In this document: piece by piece, positions 12,635 to 64,000 of the stretch
How positions within the stretch are numbered: position 1 is the first letter of the stretch
Layout of the letters: every line of letters starts with the position of its first letter
Source: Desulfovibrio sp. UBA6079
GTDB taxonomy: Bacteria; Desulfobacterota; Desulfovibrionia; Desulfovibrionales; Desulfovibrionaceae
Assembly: GCA_002428705.1 (NCBI GenBank)
Contig: DIXN01000001.1
Coordinates: forward strand, 15,030 to 79,029
DNA length: 64,000 nucleotides
Reading direction: 5' to 3'
The notes under the pieces: model-generated
Told to the model about the DNA's origin: nothing
The model's database searches: none
Seen by the model: the letters and a program-made list of their open reading frames with translations, nothing else
Made by a program: the position numbers and the translations under genes

Positions 12635-14221
<1,587 letters not shown>

Positions 14222-14235
14222 GGCCGGGCGGAGCA

Positions 14236-14367: not shown

Positions 14368-14670
14368 GAAGGGAGAGCAGTGTCCCGCGCGGAAGCCGGG
14401 TGTCCGTAGCGACTGGAGAAAAACAAAAACTGGCCAATGAGGGAAAGACGGACGTCGAAAAAGCCCGGTCGAGAGCCGGTACGCTCTTTCACCTCGTGGC
14501 GGCTTTTCTCTCCTGTTTTTTCCGGACATCCCCTCAGGCAACGAGGATGGCCCCGCATGCCCGCCCTGCTGTGCCGCGGCCATGCGCTTTCTGACCATCG
14601 ATGGCGGCTTTTTTTCCGATCGACTCCGGGACTGACTGGCGTCTGGGATATTTTCGTGTAACATGGCTCA

Positions 14671-14721
14671 CCATTGCTCTGGAGCGGTCCGGGTCTTTCC
14701 CGGACCGCTCCGGAGCAATGG
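14671..14721. repeat. 23-bp-stem hairpin (one T.G position)
   Basis: CCATTGCTCTGGAGCGGTCCGGG-TCTTT-CCCGGACCGCTCCGGAGCAATGG, immediately upstream of repeat copy C. Confidence 0.85.
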
Positions 14722-14725
14722 AACC

Positions 14726-14801
14726 GAGGGGGTCCAGGGGGAAAGCATTTCCCCCTGGCAGGGGGTGCAGGGGGACGGCGTCCCCCTGCCCGCCGGAGGC
14801 C
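14726..14801 (+). repeat. modular hairpin mosaic repeat, copy C (HP3b-HP3a-tail; no HP1/HP2)
   Basis: HP3b CCAGGGGG-AAAGCATTT-CCCCCTGG 14734..14758. HP3a GCAGGGGGAC-GGC-GTCCCCCTGC 14767..14789. Tail CCGCCGGAGGCC 14790..14801. Confidence 0.85.
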
Positions 14802-14832
14802 AGGCAGCGCCCTACCATGGAGGCTCGCAACC

Positions 14833-17553: not shown

Positions 17554-19163
17554 GCCTCCGGCCAGGCGACCACGCGGTTGCGGCCCTGGCTCTTGGCCTG
17601 GTAGAGCGCCCGGTCGGCGGCTTTCAGCCCGGCCTCGAGCTCCGGCACGCCCCTGGCGCCGGCCAGGTCCGGGCAGAGCGCCACGCCGATGCTGACGGTC
17701 ATGGGCACGCACAGCTCCTTCAGGGTCAGCGGCTTCGCGGCCACGGCCTGGCGCATCCGCTCGGCCAGGCTCGCGGCATCTGCCAGGGTGGTGTTGGCCG
17801 CGATCACGGCGAACTCCTCCCCGCCGAAGCGGGCCAGGAGGTCGGAGCCGCGGATGGTCGCGAGCATGACCCTGACCACGTGCTTCAGGACCTCGTCGCC
17901 GACGCTATGCCCATGGGTATCGTTGACCGCCTTGAAATGATCGAGATCGACCATCAGGCAGGCGCAGTCCTGTTCGTTGCGGCGGGACAGCGCCAGGTAG
18001 CGCAAGCCCGCCTCCAGCAGATGGCGGCGGTTGGAGATGCCGGTCAGGAAGTCCTGGCGCGAACTCTCCTCCAGGACCTTGATGTCGTCGTGGATGCGCC
18101 GGGCCATGAAGCGGAAGGCCCGGTTCAGGTCGCGTATCTCCCGCGGGGCCTGGGTCAGCGATTCGGGCTCCACGGTTTCCGCGAAGCGCCCGGCGGAAAT
18201 GGCCACGGCGCTCTTGTGCAGCCGCTCCAGAGGCTCTTCCAGCGAGCGCGCCAGCCTGAGGAAAAGGGGCGTGAGCACGGCCAGCGACAGGGCCAGCCCA
18301 CCAAGCACGGCGAGCATGCCCTGGTTCAGAGGGGAGAAGACTTCCCGCAAGGGCAGCTCGCCGACCAGCAGCCAGGTGTCGCCCTTGGTCCACAGAAAAT
18401 CGCCGATGACCCGGCGTCCCAGATGGTTGACGTACGGCGCGGTGCTGTGCTCCCCCTGCCGGGCGCGGGCGAGAAGAACTCCCGAGCCCGACGGCCCCGT
18501 AGCCTGCGCCGTGCTCTCCTCGTATCCGGTCAGCAGGCGGCCGTCGGCGTCCAACAGGAAAGTCTCGCCGGAGAAGCCGAGGCGCGTGCGGCTCATGAGC
18601 GCCTCGATGGCCGACAGCGGAACCGCGCCGAGGACCGCCCCGCCGAACGAGCCGTCGAGAAGTGCAACCGGTGCGGAAACGACGATCACCAGCCGGCCAG
18701 ACTTGCGGCTGACCAGCACCCCGGTGACCGAGGACCGGCCCTGGCGAGCGGCGTCGAAATAGGCCCGGTCGCCCACGTAGAGGCCCGGGTTGCCGCTGGT
18801 ATCCACCCGGGTGTGGCCATCGGGCTCGACGTAGATCAGGGCGTCGAAGGCGCTGGAACTCCGGCGGAAGCTGGCGAAGACCTCGGCCATGGCCGCATCG
18901 TCGAAGCTTCTCAGCTGGGGCAGGTCGGCCAGAAAGGTCACTTCCGCCAGCCGGTCCTCCATCCAGTTGTCCAGATAGAGGCGCTGCAGGCCCAGGGTGC
19001 GATCGATGGAGGCGAGTGTGCGGACCTCTATCTCGTCCTTCAGGATGACGTAGAAAAAGACGGCCACCAGGCAGAGCGGCAGCGCGGCCAGGGACAGGGC
19101 CAGCGCCCGCAGCCGGGAGCGGACGGTATCGAAGCTGATGAGACGGCTGATGAATGGAGGCAA
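17550..19163 (-). CDS. diguanylate cyclase with periplasmic Cache-like sensor and HAMP-like linker
   Basis: C-terminal GGDEF domain (RFGGEEF) with RGSD five residues upstream (RxxD I-site). Two TM segments flank a ~250-aa sensor region. There is no ATG between the track start and the first TM segment. I chose TTG 19163, preceded by GGAGGGCGAGGGGG. The 5' end is uncertain and could extend to 19406. Confidence 0.75.
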   Translation of the reverse strand: MPPFISRLISFDTVRSRLRALALSLAALPLCLVAVFFYVILKDEIEVRTLASIDRTLGLQRLYLDNWMEDRLAEVTFLADLPQLRSFDDAAMAEVFASFRRSSSAFDALIYVEPDGHTRVDTSGNPGLYVGDRAYFDAARQGRSSVTGVLVSRKSGRLVIVVSAPVALLDGSFGGAVLGAVPLSAIEALMSRTRLGFSGETFLLDADGRLLTGYEESTAQATGPSGSGVLLARARQGEHSTAPYVNHLGRRVIGDFLWTKGDTWLLVGELPLREVFSPLNQGMLAVLGGLALSLAVLTPLFLRLARSLEEPLERLHKSAVAISAGRFAETVEPESLTQAPREIRDLNRAFRFMARRIHDDIKVLEESSRQDFLTGISNRRHLLEAGLRYLALSRRNEQDCACLMVDLDHFKAVNDTHGHSVGDEVLKHVVRVMLATIRGSDLLARFGGEEFAVIAANTTLADAASLAERMRQAVAAKPLTLKELCVPMTVSIGVALCPDLAGARGVPELEAGLKAADRALYQAKSQGRNRVVAWPEA

Positions 19164-19442
19164 GCCCCCTCGCCCTCCAGGATAAAAACCAGACCACGAG
19201 GATGGGGCTTCATGGCCCAATCCGTTCGACTTGGCAAGGGTTTTCTGAAAATCGTCGAGCCCACGGACCCGGCCGGCGCCGACCTCCCTGCGGTCTTTTG
19301 CAGGGAGGTCGGGCAGGGGCGGCTCCCCAGGCCCGGCCCGGTCAATGGAGGGGCTGTACGCGACCAGGACGGGCGGTGGCTGCGGCCGCAGAGGCGGACC
19401 GCACATCCACGTATCTTATGTACGACGCAGGAAGGGAAAAGG

Positions 19443-20096
19443 TCACCCGGCCGGAACAGGCGGGCAGTCCGGATCGGCGCAAGCCCCGGATTGCGGCCGC
19501 TCGGATTCCTGGCGCCGCTCGGGCCGGCAGAGGCCCCGGCGCAAGGCCCAGACGAGCTCGGTCCGGCTGCTCACCGGTGTAAGCAAGCGCGTGCCCACCC
19601 GGCCGAGCTCGGCCAGGCTGTGGGCATCGGAGCCGCCGCAGCCGACCAGGGGATAGGTCCGGGTCCAGGCGGCCAACCGGGCGTTCTCCTCGGGCGTGTT
19701 GCGGCCGTTCATCAGCTCCACCAGGCGGGTCAGGCCCGCGGCCACCAGCTCTTCGCGCCCCGGCCGGCTGGCCCGGCAGGGATGGGCCATGACCGCGGCG
19801 CCGCGGCGCGCCTCGACCAGGGCCAAGAGGTCCTCGGCGCACAGGCCGGGCGCGAGGTCCTCGAAGGCGCCGAACAGGAGGAAATCGCCGCCCCCGGTGG
19901 AGTACTCCATACCCACGATGACGCACAGACCGTCGGCCTGCAGCCCCTCGCGCACGACCTCGCGCACGGCCATGGTGTCGTGGTCGGTCAGGCAGACGCC
20001 GTCGAGCCCCCTGGCCCGGGCGTTACCCAGGATCTCGGCCACGGTCAGCCGGCTGCAGGTGGAGATGGCGGTATGGACGTGGAGATCGAAAAGCAT
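19443..20096 (-). CDS. PHP-domain metal-dependent phosphoesterase
   Basis: MLFDLHVHTAISTCS...GVCLTDHDT contains PHP His/Asp metal motifs. Start moved to ATG 20096. Confidence 0.7.
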   Translation of the reverse strand: MLFDLHVHTAISTCSRLTVAEILGNARARGLDGVCLTDHDTMAVREVVREGLQADGLCVIVGMEYSTGGGDFLLFGAFEDLAPGLCAEDLLALVEARRGAAVMAHPCRASRPGREELVAAGLTRLVELMNGRNTPEENARLAAWTRTYPLVGCGGSDAHSLAELGRVGTRLLTPVSSRTELVWALRRGLCRPERRQESERPQSGACADPDCPPVPAG

Positions 20097-20175
20097 GGCG
20101 CATTGTGCCATGGCCGGCCGACCATGGCAAATATGCCGCCTCGATCGCCACTCATGCAATGCATAGGAATATTCA

Positions 20176-21576
20176 ATGGCGAACGCCCTTCCCCTCGCCC
20201 GCCAGGCAGGCTATCAGCCGGATAGGACGAAGGAAACACTCTGTAAACCTGGGGAAGCGCACGTGCCCTCGAAATGCCTGCTCATCGTCCTCGACGGCCT
20301 GGGAGATCGGTCCTATGCCCGCTTCGGCCACTTGACGCCCCTGGCCTCGGCCCGGACCCCGGCCCTGGACGCCCTGGCCGCGCGCGGAGCCAGCGGCCTC
20401 TACCATGCCGGCAGCCTCGGCCAGGCCCTGCCGAGCGAGAACGCCCATTTCGCCATGTTCGGCTACGAGCTCTGCGATTTTCCGGGCCGCGGCGCACTCG
20501 AAGCCCTGGGCAGCGGGGTCGAGCTGGCCCCGGGCGAGGTGGCCGTGCTGGCCCACTTCGTCAGCCTGGAAAACGTGGACGGCCGGGCGCGTCTGGTCCA
20601 GGACCTGCCCCGGGCCGACGCGGCCGAGGCCAAGGCCTGCATCGCCGCGGCCGGGACCTTCGCCCACGATGGCGTGCAGGTGCGCTTCCACCAGACCAAG
20701 GGGCTCTTCGGCGTGCTCGTGCTCTCGGGCGGAGCGCTCGACCCGCGCGTCACCGACTCGAACCCCATGCGCGACGGGCGCTTCCTCTCCGCCGTCGTGC
20801 CCCGTGCCGAGGCAGCCGCCGATCCGGCCACCCGGCGCACGGCCGCGGCCCTGACCGCCTACCTGCGCTTCGCCCACCAGGCCCTCTCCTGCCTGCCCGA
20901 AAACGCCGCCCGGACCGCGCGCGGCCTTGCGCCGCTGAACGGTCTGGTCAGCCAGCGGGCGGGCCGTCTCAAGCCGGTCACGCCCTTTGCCCGGCGCTTC
21001 GGCCTGAAAGGGGCGAGCCTGGCCTCTGGCGCGGTCTTCAAGGGGCTGGCCGCCTACCTGGGCCTTGACTTCGTCAGGGCCCGCGAAACGGGCGACGCCG
21101 AGGCCGACATGTTCGAGCGGCTACACCTCGCCCGCGAGCTCCTGTCCGGCGATGTCGGCTTCCTGCACCTGCACACCAAGGCTCCGGACGAGGCCGCCCA
21201 CACCAAGGACCCAGTGGCCAAGCTCGCGGTCATCGAGGCCCTGGACCGGGCGCTTGCCCGGGGTTTGGCGCCCTTCCTGGACGATCCCGAGGTTCTGACC
21301 GTGGTCACAGCCGACCACTCCACGCCCTCCTGCGGCCAGTTGGTGCACTCGGGCGAGCCCGTGCCGCTGACCTTCTGCGGACCCGGCGTGCGCCGCGACG
21401 GGCTGAGCCGTTTCGACGAGGTGACGGCCGCGGCCGGGGCGCTCGGGCCGGTGCGCGGCACCGAGCTCATGGCCCTCATCCTGAACGCGCTCGACCGCTG
21501 CCGGCTGGCCGGCATCCACGACACACCGGAGTCCCTGGACTACTGGCCCGGCGACTTCGACCCCTTCCGCCTCTAG
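20176..21576 (+). CDS. alkaline-phosphatase-superfamily metalloenzyme, archaeal-type cofactor-independent phosphoglycerate mutase (ApgM)-like
   Basis: CLLIVLDGLGDRS, VVTADHSTPS and HSGEPVPLTF match ApgM-family metal-ligand blocks. From memory, this family also includes proposed non-canonical homoserine kinases, so the substrate is not assignable. Confidence 0.65.
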   Translation: MANALPLARQAGYQPDRTKETLCKPGEAHVPSKCLLIVLDGLGDRSYARFGHLTPLASARTPALDALAARGASGLYHAGSLGQALPSENAHFAMFGYELCDFPGRGALEALGSGVELAPGEVAVLAHFVSLENVDGRARLVQDLPRADAAEAKACIAAAGTFAHDGVQVRFHQTKGLFGVLVLSGGALDPRVTDSNPMRDGRFLSAVVPRAEAAADPATRRTAAALTAYLRFAHQALSCLPENAARTARGLAPLNGLVSQRAGRLKPVTPFARRFGLKGASLASGAVFKGLAAYLGLDFVRARETGDAEADMFERLHLARELLSGDVGFLHLHTKAPDEAAHTKDPVAKLAVIEALDRALARGLAPFLDDPEVLTVVTADHSTPSCGQLVHSGEPVPLTFCGPGVRRDGLSRFDEVTAAAGALGPVRGTELMALILNALDRCRLAGIHDTPESLDYWPGDFDPFRL

Positions 21577-44721: not shown

Positions 44722-45300
44722 CTATTTGGCCGGGTAGATTTTTTCGAGCTTGGCGCCCTTGAAGGAGATGTCGGCCATGAGGCCTTTGACGTCGAGGACG
44801 AAGCCGATGATCGGGTTCTTCATGGTCTGGGTGTCGAGGCTTTTGCCCGCGCCGATGTCGGCCATGGCCACGTTGCCGTCCACGCCGATCTCGAAGCCGT
44901 TGCTGTGCTGGAACTTGTAGAGGGCTTCCTCGGTCATGAACAGGATGATCACGTCCTTTGATTGGCCGCCGATCTGCAGGCCGAAGGAGGCGGACTTGAG
45001 GGCATAGTAGTCGACGGTCTTGCCGGCGATGCGCAGGACGCCTTCGCCGTATTCGCCGCCCAGGATGAGCGCGCCCTTGACCACGTTCGGGATGATCAAC
45101 ACGCCTTTGGCCGAGGCCAGCAGCTCGTCGGCGCCCGTGACCTGCTGCTTGAAGCGCGTCAGCGTCCAGTCGGACTTGGTGTCGAGCTCGCTGGCCGTGG
45201 CCGCGGCCAGGGCCGTGCCGGCGGCAAGGGTGGTGCCAAGGGCCAGGACGAACGCCAGAATCGTTGTCCGGCGGGCGAAGCGAAAAATGCGCATGCTCAT
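44722..45300 (-). CDS. SYLF (Ysc84-like, DUF500) lipid-binding domain protein, secreted/lipoprotein-like
   Basis: Signal-like N-terminus MSMRIFRFARRTTILAFVLALGTTLAAGTALAA. SYLF-type blocks ...GALILGGEYGEGVL... and ...SFGLQIGGQS. Confidence 0.7.
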   Translation of the reverse strand: MSMRIFRFARRTTILAFVLALGTTLAAGTALAAATASELDTKSDWTLTRFKQQVTGADELLASAKGVLIIPNVVKGALILGGEYGEGVLRIAGKTVDYYALKSASFGLQIGGQSKDVIILFMTEEALYKFQHSNGFEIGVDGNVAMADIGAGKSLDTQTMKNPIIGFVLDVKGLMADISFKGAKLEKIYPAK

Positions 45301-47893: not shown

Positions 47894-48147
47894 AAGAACA
47901 GGTGGCAGGGCATCCTGACCGCCCGACGGGGTCCAGAATGCCCCGGAATGCCGACGGACGGTGATTGGCCTCTGGTCGGCGGCGATCGAAAAAGTCGCCA
48001 TTACGGTAGAGATAGTGCCGTCCGCGGCCGGATGCCCGGTCCTTCGACCAACCGTCCGCGCCGGTCCGGGCCGTCTTCACCCTCACCGGCTGCCGTTGAT
48101 CTTCCTTGCCTTGGTCGACGACCCCGGCGGGGGGCATGGCCCGCCTT

Positions 48148-48303
48148 GGCCACCAAGCTGAAAATCGAAGCCGCCCGGTGTTCTTCGCACCGGGCGGCTT
48201 CGATTTTCAGACTGCGGGGTCGAGGGGGATCATCCCCCTCGTGGGGTGCAGGGGCAACGCCCCTGCTGGGGTCCAGGGGCGAAGCCCCTGGCCGCCGGAG
48301 GCC
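48148..48303 (+). repeat. modular hairpin mosaic repeat, copy F (HP1-HP2-HP3a-HP3b-tail; most complete)
   Basis: HP1 48158..48210: CTGAAAATCGAAGCCGCCCGGTG / CACCGGGCGGCTTCGATTTTCAG. HP2 48221..48241: CGAGGGGGAT-C-ATCCCCCTCG. HP3a 48248..48266: GCAGGGGC-AAC-GCCCCTGC. HP3b 48273..48291: CCAGGGGC-GAA-GCCCCTGG. Tail 48292..48303. Ends 8 nt before the dnaA stop codon. Confidence 0.9.
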
Positions 48304-48310
48304 CGCCCGG

Positions 48311-49684
48311 CTACAGGTTCATATGGTTGATGGTGTGGGTGATCTGGCGGCCGAGGGGGGTTTGCTGGGCGATTTCGCGTTCGAGCTTGGTGATGCCCTT
48401 GATCACGGTGGAGTGGCGGCGGTTGAATTCCTGGCCGATGTCTTCGAGGGACAGGCCGGTATGCTTGCGGGCCAGGTAGAAGGCGGTGTTGCGGGCGATG
48501 ACGATGTTCTGTCTGCGGCTTTTGGAGCTCAGCTCGTCCTGGCTCAGGCGGAAGTTCTGGCAGACGGCGCGGATGATGGCGGCGAGGTCGGGGCCGGCTT
48601 CCTTGGCTTCGTAGTTGCGCAGGGTCTCCAGGGCCAGCTCGGTGGTGATCTGGCGGTTTAAGAGTTTGGCCTTGAGGACGAGCGACTGCAGGCAGCTCTC
48701 GAGGGTCCGGATATCGGCCTGGATGCGCTGGGCGAGGAGTGCGGAGACGTCTTCGGGGACATCGACCTGATAGCGGGTGCGGGCCTTGTGGCTGACGATG
48801 CGCATGCGGGTGTCGAGGTCGGGGTGCTCGATGACGGCGAGCAGGCCGGCGCAGAAACGGGAGGCCAGCTGGCGGTCGACGCCGGAGAGTTCGCGGGGGA
48901 GAAACGAGCTGGTCAGGACGATCTTGCTGCCGTGCTCGCGCAGGGCTTTCAAGGTGGCCAGGAGCTCGTCCTGGATCTTCTCCTTGCCCTGGAGGAAGTG
49001 GATGTCCTCGAGGAGGAGGATGTCGACGTGGTCGCGGAACTCGGCCTTGAAGCGGTCCATCTCGCGCATCTTGAGAGCCAGGACCATGCGCGTGGCGAAC
49101 TCCTCGGCGGTCAGGTAGCGCACGCGCACGGCGCGGGTGTTGGCGATGGCGGTCAGGGAGCGGCCGATGGCCTGGAGGAGGTGGGTCTTGCCCAGGCCCG
49201 GGGAGGAGCAGAGGATGAGCTGATCGGAGAGCAGGGTCTTGCGGCACAGGCCCTGGGAGGCGGCGAAGGCCAGCTCGTTGCAGGGTCCGACCACGAAATC
49301 GTCGAAGGAGAAGCGCCAGGCCGGGGCGGTGCGGGGCGCCGGGGCAGGAGCCAGGACCGCCGGGGGCGTGGCGGCGGGCGCGGGCAGGGCCATGGGGCGC
49401 TGCACGGCCGGGTCGGCGGGCGGCGGGGTCGGATGTAAAGCAGTGGAGCGCGGACGCGTGCTCACGGTGACCCTGGCCGGCCGGCCGAGGACGTCGCTTG
49501 CGGCCTGGGTCACGGTGGTCAGCAGGCGGTCGCGGACGCCGCTGGCGACGAACTCGTTGGGTGCGACAAGTTCACAGTGATCGTCCCTGATGACCGCCGA
49601 GAGGGGGCTGATCCAGATTTTAAAAAGGCCAGGATTCAGGTTTTTTTGGAGGATATGGAGGATGCGGTCCCAGCTTGTCTTCAT
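48311..49684 (-). CDS. dnaA: DnaA-family chromosomal replication initiator (possibly a divergent paralogue)
   Basis: Domain I MKTSWDRILHILQKNLNPGLFKIWISPL, a Pro/Ala-rich linker, AAA+ Walker A SSPGLGKTHLLQAIG, LLLEDIHFLQGKEKIQDEL, and domain IV IVIARNTAFYLARKHTGLSLEDIGQEFNRRHSTVIKG. Confidence 0.8.
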   Translation of the reverse strand: MKTSWDRILHILQKNLNPGLFKIWISPLSAVIRDDHCELVAPNEFVASGVRDRLLTTVTQAASDVLGRPARVTVSTRPRSTALHPTPPPADPAVQRPMALPAPAATPPAVLAPAPAPRTAPAWRFSFDDFVVGPCNELAFAASQGLCRKTLLSDQLILCSSPGLGKTHLLQAIGRSLTAIANTRAVRVRYLTAEEFATRMVLALKMREMDRFKAEFRDHVDILLLEDIHFLQGKEKIQDELLATLKALREHGSKIVLTSSFLPRELSGVDRQLASRFCAGLLAVIEHPDLDTRMRIVSHKARTRYQVDVPEDVSALLAQRIQADIRTLESCLQSLVLKAKLLNRQITTELALETLRNYEAKEAGPDLAAIIRAVCQNFRLSQDELSSKSRRQNIVIARNTAFYLARKHTGLSLEDIGQEFNRRHSTVIKGITKLEREIAQQTPLGRQITHTINHMNL

Positions 49685-50209
49685 GACGGGAAGGTTTAGC
49701 CCCGAGAGCGGTCAAAGGGCAAGGCGCGAATACGGCCTCCCGGCCGGGCCGGGGCTGGCAGGTTATCTACAAACCAACACGTTGTTTTCATTAATTTTAT
49801 TTGATTTGCTTGCGACTAAAGGACATTCGCATGTCCCCGGATAGCGACCAGCTGGCCGGGGTTTCCGCTGGTCATGTCATTTTTTATCAACAACACTTGA
49901 TATCTTTTTCCACAGGTTAATTTCATGTTTTCATCTGATTTCAAAGCCTAGGATCATTTTTTTGCTTTGCACCTTGCCATAACATTGACATTTTTGGCTG
50001 CTACGCCTGTAACCCCGATGTAACACATCGGCCCGGGGCGGCGATTTGCCTGCCTCCTCCGGACCCGACCCGGTTCCGCCGCACTGTTATCGCTGCGCAC
50101 AAAATGTATTACTACATCCCGGAAAGCAGCCAACCCGGCCGATTCCCGGACTTCGTTTTCAACAAGCGGAAAATGGCCGAACGACGGGGGCCGCCACGTG
50201 CAAGCCCGG
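49685..50209. other. AT-rich intergenic region with three 8/9 DnaA-box matches (dnaA promoter/autoregulatory region or oriC-like)
   Basis: TTATCTACA 49763..49771, TTATCAACA 49884..49892 and TTTTCCACA 49906..49914, compared with TTATCCACA. All three are in the same orientation. AT-rich runs occur at ~49785..49810 and 49920..49965. Confidence 0.4.
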
Positions 50210-55979: not shown

Positions 55980-56055
55980 GGGGATGTAGCTCAGTTGGGA
56001 GAGCGCTGCGTTCGCAACGCAGAAGTCGTGGGTTCAAGTCCCATCATCTCCACCA
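55980..56055 (+). tRNA. tRNA-Ala (anticodon CGC)
   Basis: 76 nt: GGGGATG TA GCTC AGTTGGGA GAGC G CTGCG TTCGCAA CGCAG AAGTC GTGGG TTCAAGT CCCAT CATCTCC A CCA. It folds as a cloverleaf, has the G3:U70 Ala identity pair, and encodes the CCA end. Confidence 0.93.
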
Positions 56056-56113: not shown

Positions 56114-58111
56114 TCATCTCTTGAGAAAACCGGCAAACGCCGCAACGAGAATGGATGTCAGGACCCAGCCGGCGAGGATGTGGACCATGAGATACCAGCG
56201 GAGGTGCCAACCTAATCGGGTGTTGGCATTTGGCATCCAGTAGCTTTGCTGGTTGAAATCGACAAGAGGCAGAAAAGTGTCCATGGAATACAAAATAGCA
56301 TTGAAAGGGGGATAGTCGTCGGCCATTATGTGACGCAGGCTGCTGTCAGCCTGATGCTCATTCCGGAATGATTCCGTTCCTGGTGTTGGCTTTATCTTCG
56401 CATATACATCGGCTGCATAAATATAATACGCGACCGAATTTGTCATGGCTCCATCTTGATCCCCCCAGGCAAAGAATAATGCACCAAGTGAAACTGCGGC
56501 AATCATGTACCAAATGACACGCCATGGTTTATATCCGTAGCCAGTCACCCATTTTATGAGCCACAGCCAAAAACGACTTACCCAATGAAGCTGGGGTAGC
56601 TTCCCTTCGTACTTTAATCCTTGATTTAATGCTTCAAAATACGCAAACGTCTCCACTTCTGGTGCAGATATGAATTTCCTCATGAACCGCCATCGCTTTG
56701 ACTCTAGATTTGATTTACCATCTAGATAATAACGGAGCTTGTCGTTCTTTGCGATGAGCACTTCTTTAGCGGCCTGTTCATGGCCGGATTGTGATAGTAC
56801 CTTTGCAAGTTGCTCATATGGTTGAGGATGGAATTGATCGTCAGGTTGGCGGTCAAGCCATTTGAGACGTTCATTGATAACCAGCGACGATTCATCGGAT
56901 ATGGCTTCATAAGTAAAGCCATCGAGTAGAAGTTTTCCTTTTCTAGGCCAATCTGTGTCGTCGTATAGTGTTCGGATTGTCGCATGCCTAAGGTCAAGGC
57001 TCGCAAGTTCGTTCCATGTAACACCATTCATCGCTATACCACCACCAATCTCAGCTAACTGAAATGTTGCCACACCTTGTAGACTGAAACCGCGCAGAAA
57101 TACACTGCCGTTTACTTTAATTCTTTCAGCGCCTAATGCATGCCAATTATTATTGCGATATATGCCGTTTGAGCAATCAAAAGCGCCACCAATAACTGCA
57201 CCGAGGAAGCAAACTTCGCCATTTGAAGTGAATCCATTATTTAAAAAAACTCCACCGCCAACTTTTATTCCGTCTGCATTAAGAGTATATTTTTTACTTT
57301 TACGAAATATACCATTTGAACAGTCGAGAGTGTTCCGAATGTCAGCTCCCAATAAACGCACATCACCTTTTGCACTACATCCATTTCTTAGGAAAACATT
57401 CCTTTTTACCTTCACTCCGTCTGCGTTCAAGGCATATCCTTTTTTATTACGAAACGTACCCTGCGAACAATCGAAATTTCCACCGATACTCGCACCAACA
57501 AATCGAGTTTCGCCCTTTGCTTTGAAGCCGCCACTTAACATCACGCATCCTCTGACATTGATGCCATCACAACTCAGTGCATAACCTTTGTCTTTGTTGT
57601 CAAATTTTCCTTTTATACAATCGAAATCTGCGCCGACCTCAGCGCCATGAAAATGCACGTTGCCTTTTGCGCTGAAATTATTCCTCAAAAACACACTCTT
57701 TTTAACACATACACGATCAGCTATCACAGAGCCAGTATGAGCACCTGTAAAGTTGATCATCCCAAACGATGCATCCTGGAGACTAATGCCATCTGGCACA
57801 TAGCAAAGCAACAATCCAAAACGCCACGGCCAATCCACGGTTGAAAGATCGAGAATGCCATTTATCCTCGCCCCAAGAATGTTCAAACCCTGCTGCAGTG
57901 AGCGACGCCTGGCGCGTTTATCTGTCATTAGCCATACGAGGCGGTCGGCTTTGATAACCGGAAGGTCGGCCTTCGAGAGATCGGTGCCTTCGCCTGGCAC
58001 CGAAACCACGGCAAGCTCCCCCTCCTCCGTGGCCTCAAATAGCTTTACCTCCGCTTCACTCAGCTCCCCGAACTTCTCCCTCGCCAGTTCCAGCAGGCTT
58101 TTCGGCGGCAT
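56114..58111 (-). CDS. tandem-repeat (beta-helix-like) protein with C-terminal multi-TM domain, in an AT-rich island
   Basis: 665 aa. About five ~48-aa tandem repeats of the form GA-x-[IV]-G-x-x-[FL]-DC-x-x-G-x-[FY]-[RD]-x...[YH]-[AT]-L-x-[ACG]-[DE]-[GR]-I/V-x-V-x-x-x-V-[FM]-L-x-x-G-[FC]-x-x-x-G. These are followed by the conserved LLLDGFTYEAI...RLKWLDRQP...FHPQPYEQLAKVL block and 3-4 TM segments. Hand-counted lines at 57241 and 56701 give 18/60 and 23/60 G+C. Confidence 0.7.
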   Translation of the reverse strand: MPPKSLLELAREKFGELSEAEVKLFEATEEGELAVVSVPGEGTDLSKADLPVIKADRLVWLMTDKRARRRSLQQGLNILGARINGILDLSTVDWPWRFGLLLCYVPDGISLQDASFGMINFTGAHTGSVIADRVCVKKSVFLRNNFSAKGNVHFHGAEVGADFDCIKGKFDNKDKGYALSCDGINVRGCVMLSGGFKAKGETRFVGASIGGNFDCSQGTFRNKKGYALNADGVKVKRNVFLRNGCSAKGDVRLLGADIRNTLDCSNGIFRKSKKYTLNADGIKVGGGVFLNNGFTSNGEVCFLGAVIGGAFDCSNGIYRNNNWHALGAERIKVNGSVFLRGFSLQGVATFQLAEIGGGIAMNGVTWNELASLDLRHATIRTLYDDTDWPRKGKLLLDGFTYEAISDESSLVINERLKWLDRQPDDQFHPQPYEQLAKVLSQSGHEQAAKEVLIAKNDKLRYYLDGKSNLESKRWRFMRKFISAPEVETFAYFEALNQGLKYEGKLPQLHWVSRFWLWLIKWVTGYGYKPWRVIWYMIAAVSLGALFFAWGDQDGAMTNSVAYYIYAADVYAKIKPTPGTESFRNEHQADSSLRHIMADDYPPFNAILYSMDTFLPLVDFNQQSYWMPNANTRLGWHLRWYLMVHILAGWVLTSILVAAFAGFLKR

Positions 58112-58356: not shown

Positions 58357-59745
58357 ATGGAGCATTCCGGGGCGAGCGACCCCTTCTCGGACATCGAAGC
58401 CAAGATCCTGGACAACATTCCCATCGGCATCATCTGCTGCGATACGGACTGCGTGGTCCGCTACCTGAACGCCACCTACGCCGGCTACCTGGGCATGGAG
58501 AAGAGGGAGGCCGTCGGCCGGAAGATCACCGAGCTCATCCCCCACTCCCGCGCGGACCTGGTGCTGAAGACCGAAGTGGCCGAGTACGGCGAGAAGTGCA
58601 CCATCCGGCGCGGCGGCGAGGAGTACACGCTGATCGTCAACCGCATCCCCCTGCCCGGCGACGACGGCCGGCTGATCGGCTTTCTGTCCCAGACCCTGTT
58701 CGGCGCGCCCGAGGAGCTGCAACGGCTCTCGGACAAGATCGTGCAGCTGGACCGCAAGGTCGGCTTCTACCGCCGGCGCTATCACAGCGCCTTGTCGGCC
58801 ATCCACTCCGCGGACAACATCCTGGGCCAGAGCACGGCCATCCGCCGGGTCAAGGAGCATCTCCTGCGCTACGCGGCCACGGACTCCCCGGTCCTGCTCC
58901 TGGGCGCCACGGGCACGGGCAAGGAGCTTTTCGCCAGCGCCGTGCACAAGGCCAGCAACCGTGCCGGCGGCCCGTTCGTGAGCATCAACTGCGGGGCCAT
59001 CCCGCAGGAGCTGTTCGAGTCCGAATTCTTCGGCTACCTGTCGGGAGCCTTCACCGGGGCGAGCAAGGAGGGCCGGGTCGGGCACATCGAGCTGGCCGAC
59101 CAGGGCACGCTCTTTCTGGACGAGATCGGGGACATGCCCATGCAGGCCCAGGTGAAGCTTTTGCGGGTCATCGAGGACAAGACCGTGTTCCGCATCGGCT
59201 CCACCCGGCCGAACAAGGTCGATTTCCGCATCGTGGCCGCCACCAACCTGGACCCCCAGACCCTCATCCGCGCCGGCAAGTTCCGCGAGGACCTCTACTA
59301 CCGCATCAGCACCATGGTCCTGTCCATCCCGCCGCTGGCCGAGCGCAAGGAGGACATCCCGCTGCTCATCGGGCACATCCTGGAGCAGATCGACCGCAAG
59401 CAGGTGCGCTTCTCGGACGGGTGCATGGACGTGCTCATGCGCTACTCCTGGCCCGGCAACATCCGCGAGCTGCGCAACATGGTCACCCGGCTGGCCAGCC
59501 TGTGCCACGACGACATGGTGGACGTGGGCGACCTGTCCCCGGACATCATCACCGGCATCGACGGCTGCCGGCGGACAAGCGACCGCTCGGCCCTGAGCAA
59601 CATCCTGGAGGGCAGCGAGCAGAGCCTCATCCTGAACGCCCTGCGCGACAACGACTGGAACATGGTGCGCACGGCCAAGGCCCTGGGCATCGCCCGGGCC
59701 ACCCTGTACGAGAAGCTCAAGAAATACCGCATCAGCCGCAACTGA
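58357..59745 (+). CDS. sigma-54-dependent transcriptional activator with N-terminal PAS domain
   Basis: PAS-like N-terminus (ILDNIPIGIICCDTDCVVRYLN). AAA+ Walker A GATGTGKE, GAFTGA loop (YLSGAFTGA), Walker B LFLDEIGD. C-terminal HTH (NMVRTAKALGIARATLYEKLKKY). Confidence 0.88.
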   Translation: MEHSGASDPFSDIEAKILDNIPIGIICCDTDCVVRYLNATYAGYLGMEKREAVGRKITELIPHSRADLVLKTEVAEYGEKCTIRRGGEEYTLIVNRIPLPGDDGRLIGFLSQTLFGAPEELQRLSDKIVQLDRKVGFYRRRYHSALSAIHSADNILGQSTAIRRVKEHLLRYAATDSPVLLLGATGTGKELFASAVHKASNRAGGPFVSINCGAIPQELFESEFFGYLSGAFTGASKEGRVGHIELADQGTLFLDEIGDMPMQAQVKLLRVIEDKTVFRIGSTRPNKVDFRIVAATNLDPQTLIRAGKFREDLYYRISTMVLSIPPLAERKEDIPLLIGHILEQIDRKQVRFSDGCMDVLMRYSWPGNIRELRNMVTRLASLCHDDMVDVGDLSPDIITGIDGCRRTSDRSALSNILEGSEQSLILNALRDNDWNMVRTAKALGIARATLYEKLKKYRISRN

Positions 59746-59779
59746 GCCGGCGCGCCCCCCCGGCGCGCCGACGTCTCGT

Positions 59780-59819
59780 CCGCCCGGACTGCCGCGCAGG
59801 AGTCCGGGCGGTCGTTTTT
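59780..59819 (+). terminator. rho-independent terminator after the activator gene
   Basis: CCGCCCGGACT-GCCGCGCAGG-AGTCCGGGCGG followed by TCGTTTTT. Confidence 0.7.
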
Positions 59820-59877
59820 CCTCGGCTTCGCCCCCGCCCGGGGGCGGACAATCTCGTGCGGAAAATCCCAAGAAAAG

Positions 59878-59921
59878 TGTCCGGACCTCCGGACATGTCC
59901 GGACGCGCCTGCTGTCCGGCT
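59878..59921. promoter_or_regulatory. cluster of TGTCCGGAC-type palindromic motifs (candidate upstream activator sites)
   Basis: TGTCCGGAC 59878..59886, CTCCGGACA 59887..59895, TGTCCGGAC 59896..59904 and TGTCCGGCT 59913..59921. They lie 140-180 bp upstream of the -24/-12 element. An AT-rich stretch at 59979..60030 lies in between. Confidence 0.35.
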
Positions 59922-60057
59922 GAACACCACCCCGGACGACACGGCCCGCAACGGCCCCGGGCCGGGGACCGGCTCCGGAAAATAAGCTCAATTATTTCAT
60001 AGTATTGAATTGTATTTTCGGATGAATGCTGCGCTTTCGCTCCAGGCTCGGCCGTCT

Positions 60058-60073
60058 TGGCACGTACCTTGCG
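60058..60073 (+). promoter_or_regulatory. sigma-54 (-24/-12) promoter
   Basis: TGGCAC-GTACC-TTGCG matches TGGCAC-N5-TTGCW exactly at the conserved GG and GC positions and their spacing. It lies 53 nt upstream of ATG 60126 and directly downstream of a sigma-54 activator gene. Confidence 0.75.
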
Positions 60074-60125
60074 AAAAAAGGCACAATTGTGGCCCAGGCC
60101 GCACAACCAAACCGGAGCGCTTGCC

Positions 60126-61856
60126 ATGAAACAGAAGATGACCCCCAGCGAAGCACTGGTCGAAACCCTGGTGGCGGAAGGCGTGCAGAACGTTTTCGGC
60201 ATCGTCGGCTCGGCCTTCATGGACTTCCTCGATCTCTTCCCCGCGGCGGGCATCCGCTTCATTCCCGTGGCCCACGAGCAGGCCGCGGCCCACGCCGCCG
60301 ACGGCCTGGCCCGGGTGACCGGCAAGCCCCAGTGCTGCATCGCCCAGAACGGCCCCGGCGCGGCCAACTTCATCTCGGCCGTGACCGCCGCCTACTGGGC
60401 GCATTCGCCGGTGGTCGCCCTGACCCCGGAGACCGGAAGCAAGGGCATCGGCACCGGCGGCTTCCAGGAGATCGACCAGATGCCCTTCTTCCAGGCGAGC
60501 ACCCGGTTCCAGGTGCGCGTGAACCGCCCGGACCGCATGGCCGAGCTGGCCCGGCGCTGCTTCTCCATCGCCAAGGCCGAGAACGGCCCCACCCAGCTGA
60601 ACATCCCCCGCGACTTCTTCTACGGCGTGTGCGAGGACGAGATCTACACCACGCCCGAGGTGCAGCGCGGCCCCGGCCCCCGTGCCCAGGTCGCCCGGGC
60701 CGCCGAGATGCTGGCCAAAGCCGCCTACCCGGTCATCCTGGCCGGCGGCGGCGTGTCCCAGGCCCTGGCCCACGCAGAGGCCAAGGCCCTGGCCGAATAC
60801 CTGAGCGCACCGGTGGCCAGCAGCTACCTGCACAACGACTCCTTCCCCGCGGACCACCCCCTGGCCGTGGGCCCCATCGGCTACTGCGGCTCCAAGGCGG
60901 CCATGCGCACCCTGGCCAAGGCCGACCTGATCCTGGCCCTGGGCTGCCGCCTGGGACCTTTCGGCACCCTGCCGCAGTACGACATGGACTACTTCCCCAA
61001 GGATGCGGCCATCATCCAGGTGGACGTGGACCATCGCGTGCTGGGCCTCAGCCGCCGCGTGGACCTAGCCGTGTGCGGCGACTGCAGGGAGTTCGCCGCC
61101 GAGCTGCTGCAGGCCCTGAAAGCCAAGAACGGCGCGCGCGAGCCGGACGCCGCCCGCCTGGCCGAGGTGAAAATGGAGAAGGCCGCCTGGGACGAGGAGC
61201 TCGCCAAGTGGTCCTCGTCCGCGGCCAAGCTCATGCATCCGCGCCGCTTCCTGAAGGAGCTGTCCGCGGCCATCCCCAAAGGCTCGATCGTCTGCACCGA
61301 CATCGGCAACAACTGCTCCATGGCCAACAGCTACCTGCGCTTCGACGGGCCGCGCCAGCACGTCTCGGCCCTGTCCTGGGGCAACTGCGGCTTCGCCTAC
61401 GGCGCGGCCCTGGGCTGCAAGGTCGGCCGCCCGGACAAGCCGGTCTTCGCCCTCCAGGGCGACGGCGCCTACGGCATCAGCGGCCTGTCCGAGGTCATGA
61501 CCGCGGTGCGCGAGAACCTGCCGGTCATCGCCGTGGTCTTCCAGAACTACGAATGGGGCGCGGAGAAGAAGAACCAGATCGACTACTACGACAACCGCTT
61601 CATCGGCGCCAACCTGCGCGAGAACCCGAGCTACGCCCAGCTGGCCAAGGACATGGGCGCCGAGGGCTACCGGGTGGAGGACTGGCGGACCGTGCGCGAC
61701 GTGGTCCGCGCGGCCGTGGCCTCGGGCCGGCCCGCGGTCATCGAGGCGGTCATCGAGGGCGGCAGGAACGTGCTGGCCGAGCCCTTCCGCCGCGACGCCC
61801 TGCAGATGCCGGTGCGCTACCTGGAGAAGTACGCGCATCTCAACGCCAAAGCCTGA
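60126..61856 (+). CDS. ThDP-dependent enzyme, sulfoacetaldehyde acetyltransferase (Xsc)-like
   Basis: 576 aa from ATG 60126 (GGAG 9 nt upstream). The N-terminal MTPSEALVETLVAEGVQNVFGIVGSAFMDFLDLFPAAGIRFIPVAHEQ...IAQNGPGAANFISAVTAAYWAHSPVVALTPE...GTGGFQEIDQMPFF...QLNIPRDFF parallels Xsc sequences as I remember them. The ThDP motif is LQGDGAYGISG...VVFQN. The acetolactate-synthase-like family cannot be excluded by eye. Confidence 0.6.
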   Translation: MKQKMTPSEALVETLVAEGVQNVFGIVGSAFMDFLDLFPAAGIRFIPVAHEQAAAHAADGLARVTGKPQCCIAQNGPGAANFISAVTAAYWAHSPVVALTPETGSKGIGTGGFQEIDQMPFFQASTRFQVRVNRPDRMAELARRCFSIAKAENGPTQLNIPRDFFYGVCEDEIYTTPEVQRGPGPRAQVARAAEMLAKAAYPVILAGGGVSQALAHAEAKALAEYLSAPVASSYLHNDSFPADHPLAVGPIGYCGSKAAMRTLAKADLILALGCRLGPFGTLPQYDMDYFPKDAAIIQVDVDHRVLGLSRRVDLAVCGDCREFAAELLQALKAKNGAREPDAARLAEVKMEKAAWDEELAKWSSSAAKLMHPRRFLKELSAAIPKGSIVCTDIGNNCSMANSYLRFDGPRQHVSALSWGNCGFAYGAALGCKVGRPDKPVFALQGDGAYGISGLSEVMTAVRENLPVIAVVFQNYEWGAEKKNQIDYYDNRFIGANLRENPSYAQLAKDMGAEGYRVEDWRTVRDVVRAAVASGRPAVIEAVIEGGRNVLAEPFRRDALQMPVRYLEKYAHLNAKA

Positions 61857-61926
61857 TGCCCGAGCCGCTCCGGCCTTCCACCCCGAGCGCCGCATCGGAA
61901 TCGATACCCCAAGGAGCATGCACATC

Positions 61927-63327
61927 ATGAACAGAGTGGACGAACTGCTCGCCAAGGCGAAAGAGGCCCAGGCCAAGGTGGCCGACTACACCCAGGAACG
62001 GATCAACGAGGTCTGCGTGGCCGTGGGCTGGCAGCTCTACAAGGACGACAACATCGAGAAGCTCGCCCGGCTGGCCGTGGACGAGACCGGCTACGGCAAC
62101 TACGAGAGCAAGATCGTGAAGCACAAGCGTAAGGTCAGCGGCCCGCTCCAGGACATCCTGGACCCCGCGGCGGTCTCCGTGGGCCTGATCGAGCGCGACG
62201 AGGCCAAGGGCATCAGCAAGTACGCCAAGCCCGTGGGCATCGTCTGCGCCATCCTGCCGGCCACCAACCCCACGGCCACGGCCGGGACCAACGGCATCTC
62301 CATCCTCAAGGGCCGCAACGCGGTCATCTTCCGGCCCAGCTCGCGCGCCCGCAAGGCCAGCTCCCTGGCCATCGAGTACATGCGCCAGGGCCTTGCGGCG
62401 GTTGGTGCGCCGGTCGATCTGGTGCAGTGCTTCGACGACGCGGACATCCCCGCGACCAACGAGCTCATGGCCAAGTGCGACCTGGTGGTGGCCACGGGCG
62501 GCGGCCCCATGGTCCGCGCGGCCTACTCCTCGGGCACGCCCTCCTACGGCGTGGGCACTGGCAACGCGACCTGCATCATCGCCGAGGACGCCGACGTGCC
62601 CGACGCCGTGGCCAAGATCACGGCCTCCAACACCTTCGACAACGCCACCTCCTGCTCCTCGGAGAACTCGGTCATCGTCCACGAGAGCCTCTTTGCGCAG
62701 GTGGTGGAGGAGTTCCGGAAGAACAACGGCTACATCGTGGACGGCGAGGAGCGCACGAAGCTCGGCAACTGGCTGTGGACCGCCAACAAGAAGGGCAAGC
62801 TGGCCCTGAACCCCGACATCATCGCCCAGTCCGCGCGCAAGATCGCCGCCGATGCCGGGCTCAGCGTGCCCGAGGCGACCACGCAGCTGGTGGTCATCGG
62901 CGTGGAGCCGGCGCCCCTGGACAAGTTCTCGGAAGAGAAAATCAGCCCGGTCATCACCCTCTACAGGTACGCGACCTTCGACGAGGCCCTGGAGAAGATC
63001 GTCGGTATAACAAACAATTGCGGCCGGGGCCATTCCATGGGTATCCATACCTTCAAGCGCGAGTACATCGAGCGCATGGGGCGCGAGATGCTCACCAGCC
63101 GCATCACCGTGCGCGCGCCCATGGCCGCGGCCAACGGCGGCCACGCCACCAACGGCATGCCCTCCACCGCGACGCTCGGATGCGGCACCTGGGGCGGGAA
63201 CTCGACCACCGAGAACATCCACTGGCGCCACTTCATCAACGTCACCTGGGTCAACGAGCCCATCCCGGCCAAGGTCTTCGACGAAAAGCAGATCTTCGGC
63301 GGCCTGTGGGCCAAATGCGGCAAGTAG
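61927..63327 (+). CDS. CoA-acylating aldehyde dehydrogenase (SucD/SauS-like)
   Basis: 466 aa from ATG 61927 (AAGGAG 10 nt upstream; ATG 61918 is an alternative). PVGIVCAILPATNPTAT, and the catalytic Cys context FDNATSCSSENSVIV. Size and layout match the acylating succinate-semialdehyde / sulfoacetaldehyde dehydrogenase class. Confidence 0.7.
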   Translation: MNRVDELLAKAKEAQAKVADYTQERINEVCVAVGWQLYKDDNIEKLARLAVDETGYGNYESKIVKHKRKVSGPLQDILDPAAVSVGLIERDEAKGISKYAKPVGIVCAILPATNPTATAGTNGISILKGRNAVIFRPSSRARKASSLAIEYMRQGLAAVGAPVDLVQCFDDADIPATNELMAKCDLVVATGGGPMVRAAYSSGTPSYGVGTGNATCIIAEDADVPDAVAKITASNTFDNATSCSSENSVIVHESLFAQVVEEFRKNNGYIVDGEERTKLGNWLWTANKKGKLALNPDIIAQSARKIAADAGLSVPEATTQLVVIGVEPAPLDKFSEEKISPVITLYRYATFDEALEKIVGITNNCGRGHSMGIHTFKREYIERMGREMLTSRITVRAPMAAANGGHATNGMPSTATLGCGTWGGNSTTENIHWRHFINVTWVNEPIPAKVFDEKQIFGGLWAKCGK

Positions 63328-63346
63328 CGCCAAAAGGAGTCACGAG

Positions 63347-64000
63347 ATGAAGCTCTTCGAATACCAGGCCAAGGAAGCCTTTGCCGCGGCCGGCATACCC
63401 GTGCCCGCAAGCCGGCTGGTGACCGACCCGGCCCAGGCCCGGGCCGCCGCCGCCGAGATCGGCCTGCCCTGCGTGATAAAGGCCCAGGTCCTGACCGGCG
63501 GGCGCGGCAAGGCCGGGCTCATCAAGCTGGCCAAGAGCCCGGACGAGGTGACGGACATCGCCGCCCGGCTGCTCGGCGACAAAAGCCGGGTCATCACCCG
63601 TCTGCTGGTCGAGCAGGCCGTGGACTTCGTGCGCGAGGTCTACCTGTCCATCACCGTGGACCCGCCCTCGGGCAAGGTGGTGATCATGGCCTGCGCCGAG
63701 GGCGGCGTGGACATCGAGCAGCTGGCCGCCACCGCGCCGGAGAAGATCAGCCGGACCCTGGTGGACATCGACCAGGGCCTGCAGGCCTTCCAGATCAAGA
63801 ACGTGGTCTTCGCCCTGGGCCTGGCCGGCGGCGAGACCGGCAAGCAGGCCGCGGCAGTGGTCAGGAACCTCTACGGCGTGTTCCGCAAGCTCGATGCGGA
63901 GCTCACCGAGATCAACCCGCTCTTCGTCACCACGGACGGACAGGTCGTGGCCGGCGACGGCAAGCTGAGCATCGACGACAACTCGCTCTCCCGCCAGCCG
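63347..64000 (+). CDS. ADP-forming acyl-CoA synthetase beta subunit (SucC-like ATP-grasp), 3' end beyond window
   Basis: Not in the ORF track because it has no stop in the window. ATG 63347 follows AAGGAG. MKLFEYQAKEAFAAAGIPVP...LPCVIKAQVLTGGRGKAGLIKLA is a classic SucC N-terminus. Confidence 0.8.
   Translation, partial: MKLFEYQAKEAFAAAGIPVPASRLVTDPAQARAAAAEIGLPCVIKAQVLTGGRGKAGLIKLAKSPDEVTDIAARLLGDKSRVITRLLVEQAVDFVREVYLSITVDPPSGKVVIMACAEGGVDIEQLAATAPEKISRTLVDIDQGLQAFQIKNVVFALGLAGGETGKQAAAVVRNLYGVFRKLDAELTEINPLFVTTDGQVVAGDGKLSIDDNSLSRQP

Follow-up and report, generated by a model that had tools for sequence, protein, structure and literature searches.

Does the operon that starts near the end of a 64,000-nucleotide (nt) stretch of DNA from Desulfovibrio sp. 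UBA6079 (contig DIXN01000001.1; this whole stretch is called the window here) encode a route from sulfoacetate to sulfite, and if so, by which steps would that route run and how would it be switched on? Sulfoacetate commonly arises when plant sulfoquinovose and taurine are broken down, and its conversion to sulfite feeds hydrogen sulfide formation in anoxic sediments and guts. The region contains a gene for a sigma-54 activator, a sigma-54 promoter, and genes for a thiamine diphosphate (ThDP) enzyme, a CoA-acylating aldehyde dehydrogenase and one subunit of an ADP-forming CoA ligase (Table 1). It is probably the 5' half of a sulfoacetate dissimilation operon controlled by its own PAS sigma-54 activator, as judged from sequence comparison. 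A preliminary description of this DNA had proposed the route sulfoacetate to sulfoacetyl-CoA to sulfoacetaldehyde to acetyl phosphate plus sulfite, and the protein families, the operon and the transporter now lend that proposal good support.

Genes and proteins of the operon

The three structural genes in the window are open reading frames (ORFs) on one strand, separated by 70 nt (xsc-sauS) and 19 nt (sauS-sauC), in the tight spacing first noted for them; no significant fold was seen in the 70-nt gap (z = -0.31). The continuation past the window edge was read from contigs found by exact-sequence look-up with the ThDP protein. One of these, L003, is 100% identical to window positions 59274-64000, and two others, L001 and L002, are 99.99% and 97.9% identical. 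The full operon has seven genes in the order xsc-sauS-sauC-sauD-tctA-tctB-tctC, with gaps of -4 to 70 nt, and the window holds its 5' half. In L001 (14349-16813) a 697-amino acid (aa) fusion and a 137-aa fragment are called in place of the ligase alpha subunit and TctA, for which L002 and L003 have separate genes of 294 and 511 aa; the fusion is probably an assembly frameshift.

Judged by the thresholds of two curated models, the ThDP enzyme is an Xsc, with 774.3 bits on TIGR03457 (equivalog, cutoff 676.4) and 851.2 bits on NF005713 (cutoff 620), so that its original description as Xsc-like is borne out by both models, far above the best acetolactate synthase model (352.6 bits). It has the Pfam domains TPP_enzyme_N/M/C, a GDG-X26-N motif at residue 445 and an HEQ motif whose Glu52 would, as in ThDP enzymes generally, be the cofactor-activating Glu. 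The nearest named homologue, 81% identical, is a protein annotated as Xsc in Humidesulfovibrio idahonensis. A longer form could start at a TTG at 60057; this codon lies 5' of the promoter and is unused by homologues. The PDB sequence search found no Xsc structure, the best match being BbmA (230 bits).

The dehydrogenase is SauS-like. Its best-fitting NCBIfam model is SauS (NF047625, 469.6 bits), 94 bits ahead of AdhE at 375.8, and its predicted catalytic Cys243 lies in an ATSCSSEN motif that is invariant across an 18-sequence alignment. It is 61% identical to the orthologue in a locus from a Bilophila sp. metagenome-assembled genome (MAG), and in both loci the next genes are sauC and sauD, which favours the SauS half of the original label, 'SucD/SauS-like'. 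The true start is taken as 61927 because the ATG at 61918 lies only 1 nt past the AAGGAG ribosome-binding site; exact-sequence look-up found the resulting 466-aa form on record and no match for the 469-aa form that starts at 61918. The closest solved structure is an acylating succinate-semialdehyde dehydrogenase (8cei, 282 bits), and PDB sequence searches found no solved SauS, SauCD or SauZ. The NADPH-dependent interconversion of sulfoacetyl-CoA and sulfoacetaldehyde has been assayed only for the SauS enzymes of B. wadsworthia and Cupriavidus necator (PMC10413351).

The ligase belongs, on its sequence motifs and model scores, to the SauCD/SqwKL clade and outside the housekeeping SucCD. What had been described as a SucC-like ATP-grasp beta subunit cut by the window edge is the first part of SauC, which misses the SucC equivalog cutoff (NF001913, 336.5 bits against 370); the CoA-binding alpha subunit SauD (294 aa), whose gene overlaps sauC by 4 nt in L003, misses that of SucD (NF004230, 321.3 bits against 336). 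SauD keeps the phosphohistidine loop MGHAGAI with His251. Where Escherichia coli SucC has MVNGAGLAMGTMD (NGAGLAM) and NIFGGIVRCD, the window SauC has MCAGAGLTTTVF and TFGTIARAD. The clade motifs MCAGAGLTTTVF and TFGTIARADVMA are common to the Bilophila locus, to which SauC is 61% and SauD 74% identical, and among the matches listed they or close variants are carried by all SauC homologues of more than 53% identity (30 of 30). The replaced Asn and Gly-Gly positions are presumably succinate contacts in succinyl-CoA synthetase, which is a lead only to the specificity of the ligase.

Database labels do not yet reflect this assignment. SauC itself (L003 4074-5204) is labelled 'succinyl-CoA synthetase beta subunit' at JGI and the Bilophila homologue 'acetate--CoA ligase family protein' at NCBI; the SauCD function is still absent from the automated annotation of this ligase. 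A different combination was seen in loci from Streptosporangiales, Dormiibacterota and Acidimicrobiia (L055, L062 and L071), which have an Xsc of 56-61% identity, a SauS-like dehydrogenase of 42-43% and a SucCD-like ligase with the differing motifs ANGAGLTMTT and CGAFARTDVM. These ligases may form a separate sulfoacetate-ligase lineage.

The last three genes encode the parts of a tripartite tricarboxylate transporter (TTT). TctA and TctC each share 56% identity with their counterparts in the Bilophila sp. locus, and the N-terminus of TctC is hydrophobic and, by eye, signal-peptide-like. TctABC thus has the make-up of a SauXYZ-type TTT importer, for which sulfoacetate is the predicted ligand. 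Genes of interest had been anticipated past position 64,000: the SucD-like alpha subunit and the sulfonate-type TTT transporter are indeed there, but the 10 kb downstream contain no pta/ackA or TauE gene.

Table 1. Features of the regulatory region and operon (window coordinates; tctABC were located on contigs that extend beyond the window)
Feature	Position	Strand	Basis or remark
Sigma-54 enhancer-binding activator (PAS - AAA+ - Fis-type helix-turn-helix, HTH), 462 aa	58357..59745	+	putative regulator of the sulfoacetate operon
Intrinsic-terminator-like hairpin and U-run 3' of the activator gene	~59780..59820	+	fold, inverted repeat I1
Putative upstream activating sequence: three TGTCCGGA half-sites as overlapping palindromes, core GGACATGTCC	59878..59904		motif matches, inverted repeats I5-I7
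AT-rich tract between enhancer and promoter, possible DNA-bending (integration host factor, IHF, type) site	59980..60022		base composition
Sigma-54 promoter, -24 TGGCAC / -12 TTGC	60058..60072	+	exact match TGGCACGTACCTTGC
xsc, sulfoacetaldehyde acetyltransferase (ThDP-dependent; EC 2.3.3.15), 576 aa	60126..61856	+	NCBIfam equivalogs, Pfam
sauS-like CoA-acylating sulfoacetaldehyde dehydrogenase, 466 aa	61927..63327	+	Aldedh domain, NCBIfam, synteny
sauC, ligase beta subunit (ATP-grasp_2), 5' 218 codons in window, 376 aa in full	63347..64000	+	open to window edge, completed from L003
tctA, TTT transporter, 511 aa	after sauD		PF01970; contigs beyond window
tctB, TTT transporter, 151 aa	after tctA		PF07331; contigs beyond window
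tctC, TTT binding protein, 326 aa	after tctB		PF03401; contigs beyond window

The proposed pathway, its relatives and its rivals

In the pathway proposed, a periplasmic binding protein of the TctC/SauZ type and the TctAB membrane parts would import sulfoacetate, and SauCD would convert it to sulfoacetyl-CoA at the cost of ATP, giving ADP and phosphate. SauS would then reduce sulfoacetyl-CoA with NAD(P)H to sulfoacetaldehyde, and Xsc, with ThDP and phosphate, would cleave the C-S bond, yielding acetyl phosphate and sulfite. Acetate kinase could regain the invested ATP from acetyl phosphate, so that substrate-level ATP would be balanced; the net outcome would be one NAD(P)H spent and sulfite gained as a six-electron acceptor, which could serve in respiration if the host has a dissimilatory sulfite reductase.

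The nearest characterized system is that of Bilophila wadsworthia 3_1_6, whose cluster SauXYZ-SauS-SauCD-TauF-IseGH, like the window operon, combines a TTT transporter, an acylating dehydrogenase and a two-subunit ADP-forming ligase. SauCD, SauS (NADPH-dependent) and the TTT binding protein SauZ (Kd for sulfoacetate 0.13 uM) of that cluster have been assayed (Liu et al. 2023, J Biol Chem, PMC10413351); the preliminary description was correct in giving Bilophila a sulfoacetate-CoA ligase that forms ADP. The Bilophila sp. MAG locus has transporter, sauS and sauCD genes as named for the B. wadsworthia cluster, with components 51-74% identical to those of the window and identical ligase motifs, and resembles the window further in its GG-N10-GC promoter, its upstream palindrome and its PAS sigma-54 activator, a homologue with 51% identity. 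The two systems differ in gene order, xsc coming first and the transporter genes last in the window, and in how the C-S bond is cleaved: Xsc in the window would act on sulfoacetaldehyde directly, whereas in Bilophila sulfoacetaldehyde is reduced to isethionate and then cleaved by a glycyl radical lyase.

Two further systems share parts of this design. SauT-SauS-Xsc of C. necator H16 follows the same route from sulfoacetyl-CoA through sulfoacetaldehyde to acetyl phosphate and sulfite, as presented in PMC10413351 from Weinitschke et al. 2010. However, its ligase is the AMP-forming SauT, not an ADP-forming SauCD, the host is aerobic and the transporter is SauU, of the major facilitator superfamily (MFS). 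Its SauS is distant, at 37% identity to B. wadsworthia SauS (PMC10413351), which is consistent with both the window and the Bilophila-locus SauS falling below the NF047625 cutoff. SqwD/SqwKL of the sulfo-transketolase variant (Chu et al. 2023, as cited in PMC12890257) are members of the same clade as the window enzymes, at 52-58% identity for the dehydrogenase and 54-64% for the ligase beta subunit, and SqwKL-type ligases and the window SauC have identical MCAGAGLTTTV and TFGTIARADVMA motifs. By that account SqwD/SqwKL run in the opposite, oxidative and ATP-yielding direction; the mapped loci of this type have neither Xsc nor a TTT transporter.

The layout itself has been catalogued before. 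In the survey of Liu et al., SauZ homologues of sulfite reducers are accompanied by SauT or SauCD and in nearly every case by SauS, and most such genomes hold Xsc in the neighbourhood or elsewhere, two Bilophila species that use IseG being the exceptions (PMC10413351). Since Xsc-linked SauCD/SauS/SauXYZ clusters of delta-proteobacterial sulfite reducers are part of that 2023 catalogue, the novelty implied in the preliminary description was overstated, and the window locus is a further example of the Xsc, SauCD, SauS and SauXYZ layout.

Relatives were collected by a scan with a SauS alignment (mostly MAGs, from the matches listed) and by tblastn mapping. The activator gene followed by xsc-sauS-sauCD-tctABC recurs in L088-L091 at 85-87% identity, and a Desulfovibrionaceae MAG (L005) has the same order at 49-73% across xsc, sauS, sauCD, tctA and tctC. 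The Xsc of L005 is 49% identical to that of the window and still above the Xsc cutoffs, while its sauS and sauD stand at 69% and 73%; the much greater divergence of xsc suggests that this gene joined sau operons more than once. In L005 a hydrolase of the HAD family, a glycyl radical enzyme (GRE) activase and an 854-aa GRE adjoin the xsc-sau operon (8163-21331), which suggests that both C-S cleavage routes co-exist there. Neither the window nor the next 10 kb (L001/L002) showed a GRE; because L005 and L088 carry a GRE and its activase beside their xsc-sau operons, one could be encoded elsewhere in the genome of the window. Clusters of sau genes without xsc were found in MAGs of Bilophila sp. 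(L006), Desulfovibrio sp. (L007) and Desulfobacterales (L004), and many Spirochaete, Firmicute and Tenericute loci among the matches listed have the dehydrogenase and ligase only.

Several points weigh against sulfoacetate dissimilation as read here. The SauS-like protein misses the NF047625 cutoff (469.6 against 600 bits). The SauS of the Bilophila locus scores 506.4, a related 464-aa homologue 495.8 and the L004 and L005 orthologues 476-483; since the Bilophila-locus SauS also falls below 600, its whole clade lies outside the cutoff. In all sequence comparisons the locus of an uncultured Bilophila sp. MAG stands proxy for B. wadsworthia 3_1_6. The window SauS and SauCD are about as close to oxidative SqwD/SqwKL-type homologues (55-64%) as to those of Bilophila, so that the direction of the reaction is read from context only. 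Finally, no rpoN, dsr or apr gene was found among the 39 window proteins scanned for domains, about ten putative genes lying outside that scan, and pta/ackA was likewise not found among the scanned genes. An ORF at 20176-21576 considered as rpoN proved to be a phosphoglycerate mutase. That sigma-54 is present in the host is implied by a second gene for a sigma-54 activator (GAF-AAA+-HTH), at 12635-14221 (+).

The closeness to oxidative homologues raises the question of whether SauS and SauCD might instead run oxidatively, with sulfoacetaldehyde (for example from taurine or isethionate) at a branch point, part of it being converted to sulfoacetate with a gain of NAD(P)H and ATP while Xsc desulfonates the rest. 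Enzymes of the same clade with identical motifs (55-64% identity) occur in Spirochaete, Firmicute and Tenericute loci that have neither Xsc nor TTT genes, SqwD/SqwKL of these phyla have been assigned the oxidative direction (PMC12890257), and B. wadsworthia SauS was assayed in that direction (PMC10413351). The operon, however, ends in a TTT uptake system that is 56% identical to that of the Bilophila locus, whose binding protein binds sulfoacetate; it has no sulfoacetaldehyde-producing enzyme (Tpa or isethionate dehydrogenase), nor do the 10 kb downstream; and in related genomes the taurine genes form an operon of their own that has its own xsc. An oxidative role is therefore considered unlikely. 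The enzymes and transporter could also serve another short sulfonated or dicarboxylic acid, such as 3-sulfopropionate in the manner of HpfX/HpfYZ, since homologous pairs of ADP-forming ligase and dehydrogenase for this compound exist (PMC11489063, PMC12890257) and the sulfoacetate specificity of SauCD is a prediction. Against such a substrate stand xsc at the head of the operon, Xsc being a curated family that acts on a C2 aldehyde, the identity of the ligase motifs to those of the Bilophila-cluster ligase, and the failure of B. wadsworthia SauZ to bind 3-sulfopropanoate (PMC10413351), which together make it very improbable.

The preliminary description held that a bypass of 2-oxoglutarate dehydrogenase, made up of a ThDP 2-oxoglutarate decarboxylase, an acylating succinate-semialdehyde dehydrogenase and a succinyl-CoA synthetase, would fit equally well. 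The generic domain content is compatible with this, the structure closest to the dehydrogenase is of just such an enzyme and JGI labels the beta subunit accordingly. The family scores nevertheless lead to its rejection, with close to complete confidence: the ThDP enzyme reaches 774-851 bits on the Xsc models, with no 2-oxoglutarate decarboxylase model among the best 25 of its 53 NCBIfam matches, and both the SucC and the SucD equivalog cutoffs are missed. In addition, the Asn of NGAGLAM and the GG of FGGIV in SucC are replaced in SauC, and a SauXYZ-type transporter ends the operon. Sulfoacetate dissimilation through SauCD, SauS and Xsc is thus the reading retained for this locus.

Proposed sigma-54 control of the operon

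Control of the operon appears to be local. The activator gene upstream of it, with a terminator of its own as had been described, encodes a protein with the Pfam domains PAS_4, Sigma54_activat, AAA_lid_14 and HTH_8, and has an intact Walker A motif (GATGTGKE, residue 183) and GAFTGA loop (residue 230). The protein is below every curated NCBIfam cutoff, the top model being PrdR with 399 bits against 795. The terminator hairpin has arms CCGCCCGGACU and AGUCCGGGCGG, which form an 11-bp G+C-rich stem followed by UCGUUUUU; the segment 59746-59830 folds with -51.6 kcal/mol (z = -3.98) and none of 200 shuffles was equally stable. A simple terminator scan misses this hairpin, having a loop limit of 8 nt.

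The TGGCAC-N5-TTGC promoter, found where the preliminary description had put it, ends about 53 nt 5' of the xsc ATG. The motif has two matches in the 64 kb, against 0.15 expected, and two of 100 shuffles reach that number. The other exact match, at 45224-45238 (-), lies inside the 5' end of a called ORF (44722-45300, Ysc84 domain), whose true start may therefore lie downstream of a sigma-54 promoter. In L088 and L091 TGGCACGAAGCTTGCG stands at the same distance from xsc as in the window, and GG-N10-GC elements (two mismatches) stand 5' of the first operon gene in L004-L007.

Upstream of the promoter is a putative enhancer, about 155-180 nt from the -24 element. Three of the seven TGTCCRGA matches in the window fall within 26 nt here, and the half-sites coincide with the inverted repeats I5-I7. 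A motif of this type, in most cases with the core GACATGTC, is found 5' of the sau promoters in L088, L091, L004 and L006. Of the core GACATGT/ACATGTC, 28 copies were counted over the whole 216 kb of the loci concerned and 13 within the 2.7 kb upstream of their nine sigma-54 elements, an enrichment of about 37-fold. Between enhancer and promoter the G+C fraction drops to 0.20 (59980-60019) against about 0.69 for the window, and related promoters have comparable AT-rich stretches at the same position. This tract was considered as an IHF site; its match to the consensus, compared by eye, is weak, so the designation was dropped and it is kept as an AT-rich tract, which may have a DNA-bending function. 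An enhancer, an AT-rich tract and a promoter in this geometry are typical of looping-dependent sigma-54 promoters.

The spacing of the elements, the GAFTGA loop and the conserved upstream site are all as would be expected of a sigma-54 promoter with a cognate activator. The activator would bind the TGTCCGGA palindromes about 165 nt upstream, looping over the AT-rich tract would bring it to sigma-54 RNA polymerase at TGGCAC-N5-TTGC, and an effector sensed by the PAS domain would trigger ATP-dependent formation of the open complex.

Homologues of the activator adjoin all sau clusters examined, with identities of 75% in L088, 51% in Bilophila sp. (L006), 49% in L007, 48% in L005 and 37% in L004. 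They also adjoin (56% identity) the taurine-xsc operons of H. idahonensis and one relative. The taurine-Xsc operons of H. idahonensis and its relatives (L084-L087) resemble the window in their Xsc (81%), their activator, the sigma-54-type GG-N10-GC element that precedes the first gene and the GACATGTC-type motif, which lies 5' of the taurine promoters in L084 and L086. They differ in what feeds Xsc: SauS, SauCD and the TTT transporter are replaced by an aminotransferase, an alanine dehydrogenase and an ABC transporter. Sulfoacetate loci, one Bilophila locus included, thus combine a related PAS activator with a sigma-54 promoter and a TGTCCRGA-type motif upstream, and taurine-Xsc loci combine such an activator and promoter with the core motif. 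In one organism several such modules lie side by side: L086-L089 are a single contig of 117-130 kb (ENA ERZ27239239 / JGI 3300038335), a C2-sulfonate island of three modules (GRE with activase; xsc-sauS-sauCD-tctABC; a taurine-type xsc-aminotransferase-ABC transporter-EamA), each with one of three paralogous PAS sigma-54 activators. Its two xsc copies are 83% identical to each other.

The activator family may have a shared GGACATGTCC-type enhancer and span the sulfoacetate-Xsc, sulfoacetate-GRE and taurine-Xsc modules, and its paralogues may have diverged in their effectors or may all sense the common intermediate sulfoacetaldehyde. No literature linking sigma-54 to sulfoacetate, sulfoacetaldehyde or isethionate was found, and no description of a C2-sulfonate regulon under a PAS sigma-54 activator family was found in the searchable literature; the paper on the sigma-54 regulome of D. 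vulgaris has no sulfonate regulon, and regulators and transcription go unmentioned in Liu et al. 2023 (PMC10413351). That such a family controls the C2-sulfonate modules in Desulfovibrionaceae, those of the gut pathobiont genus Bilophila among them, together with sulfoacetate respiration by Xsc and SauCD, is put forward tentatively, the case being nearly balanced and leaning slightly to doubt. What is new here is modest and regulatory, namely a sigma-54/PAS-activator control that sulfoacetate and taurine modules have in common.

Surroundings of the operon and its significance

Downstream of tctC there is an NfnAB-like gene pair, then an MFS gene on the other strand. The pair (L001 18440-20706, about 4.5-6.8 kb past the window end) consists of an NF004862 FAD/NAD-binding subunit and a TIGR01316 gltA-type subunit, and is separated from tctC by 95 nt with a strong hairpin. 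It was considered as a supplier of NADPH to SauS, an idea that was dropped because the adjacency is confined to this lineage (it is absent from L004-L007, L088 and L091) and the hairpin separates the genes.

The other scanned genes of the window, which is about 69% G+C, are housekeeping, signalling and anaerobe-type genes, among them those for CcmF, an IOR-like protein, a LUD/Fe-S protein and the second sigma-54 activator. A 665-aa ORF at 56114-58111 (-), of 46% G+C, lies by a tRNA-Ala(CGC) gene (55980-56055). Its product has a hydrophobic C-terminus and repeats, each about 40 aa long, of the form G..FDC..G.F.N...YAL.ADGI.V.G.VFL. The ORF is also conserved in L001 and L002, and searches of Pfam, NCBIfam, PADLOC and PDB sequences gave no match; it is probably an orphan gene that came in by horizontal transfer and was inserted next to the tRNA gene. 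A second stretch of low G+C lies at 6001-8000 (0.54 against about 0.69). The strongest local excursion of GC skew in the window (+0.18, 48001-50000) falls on a DnaA-family gene at 48311-49684 (-), and this may be a replication-origin region.

The window locus brings an ADP-forming ligase, SauS, Xsc, a transporter and a regulator together in a compact, radical-free variant of sulfoacetate dissimilation. The Xsc-based SauCD variant has so far been backed only by genome-neighbourhood statistics, and the locus may offer a template for its biochemistry. If the reading is true, this route would provide sulfite reducers with an ATP-balanced and oxygen-insensitive form of sulfoacetate respiration that, compared with that of Bilophila, needs neither the isethionate step nor an oxygen-sensitive radical enzyme. 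The conserved promoter and enhancer would in turn provide a sequence handle for finding sulfonate regulons and a point of entry to the signal that turns on sulfonate respiration in organisms of the Bilophila type.

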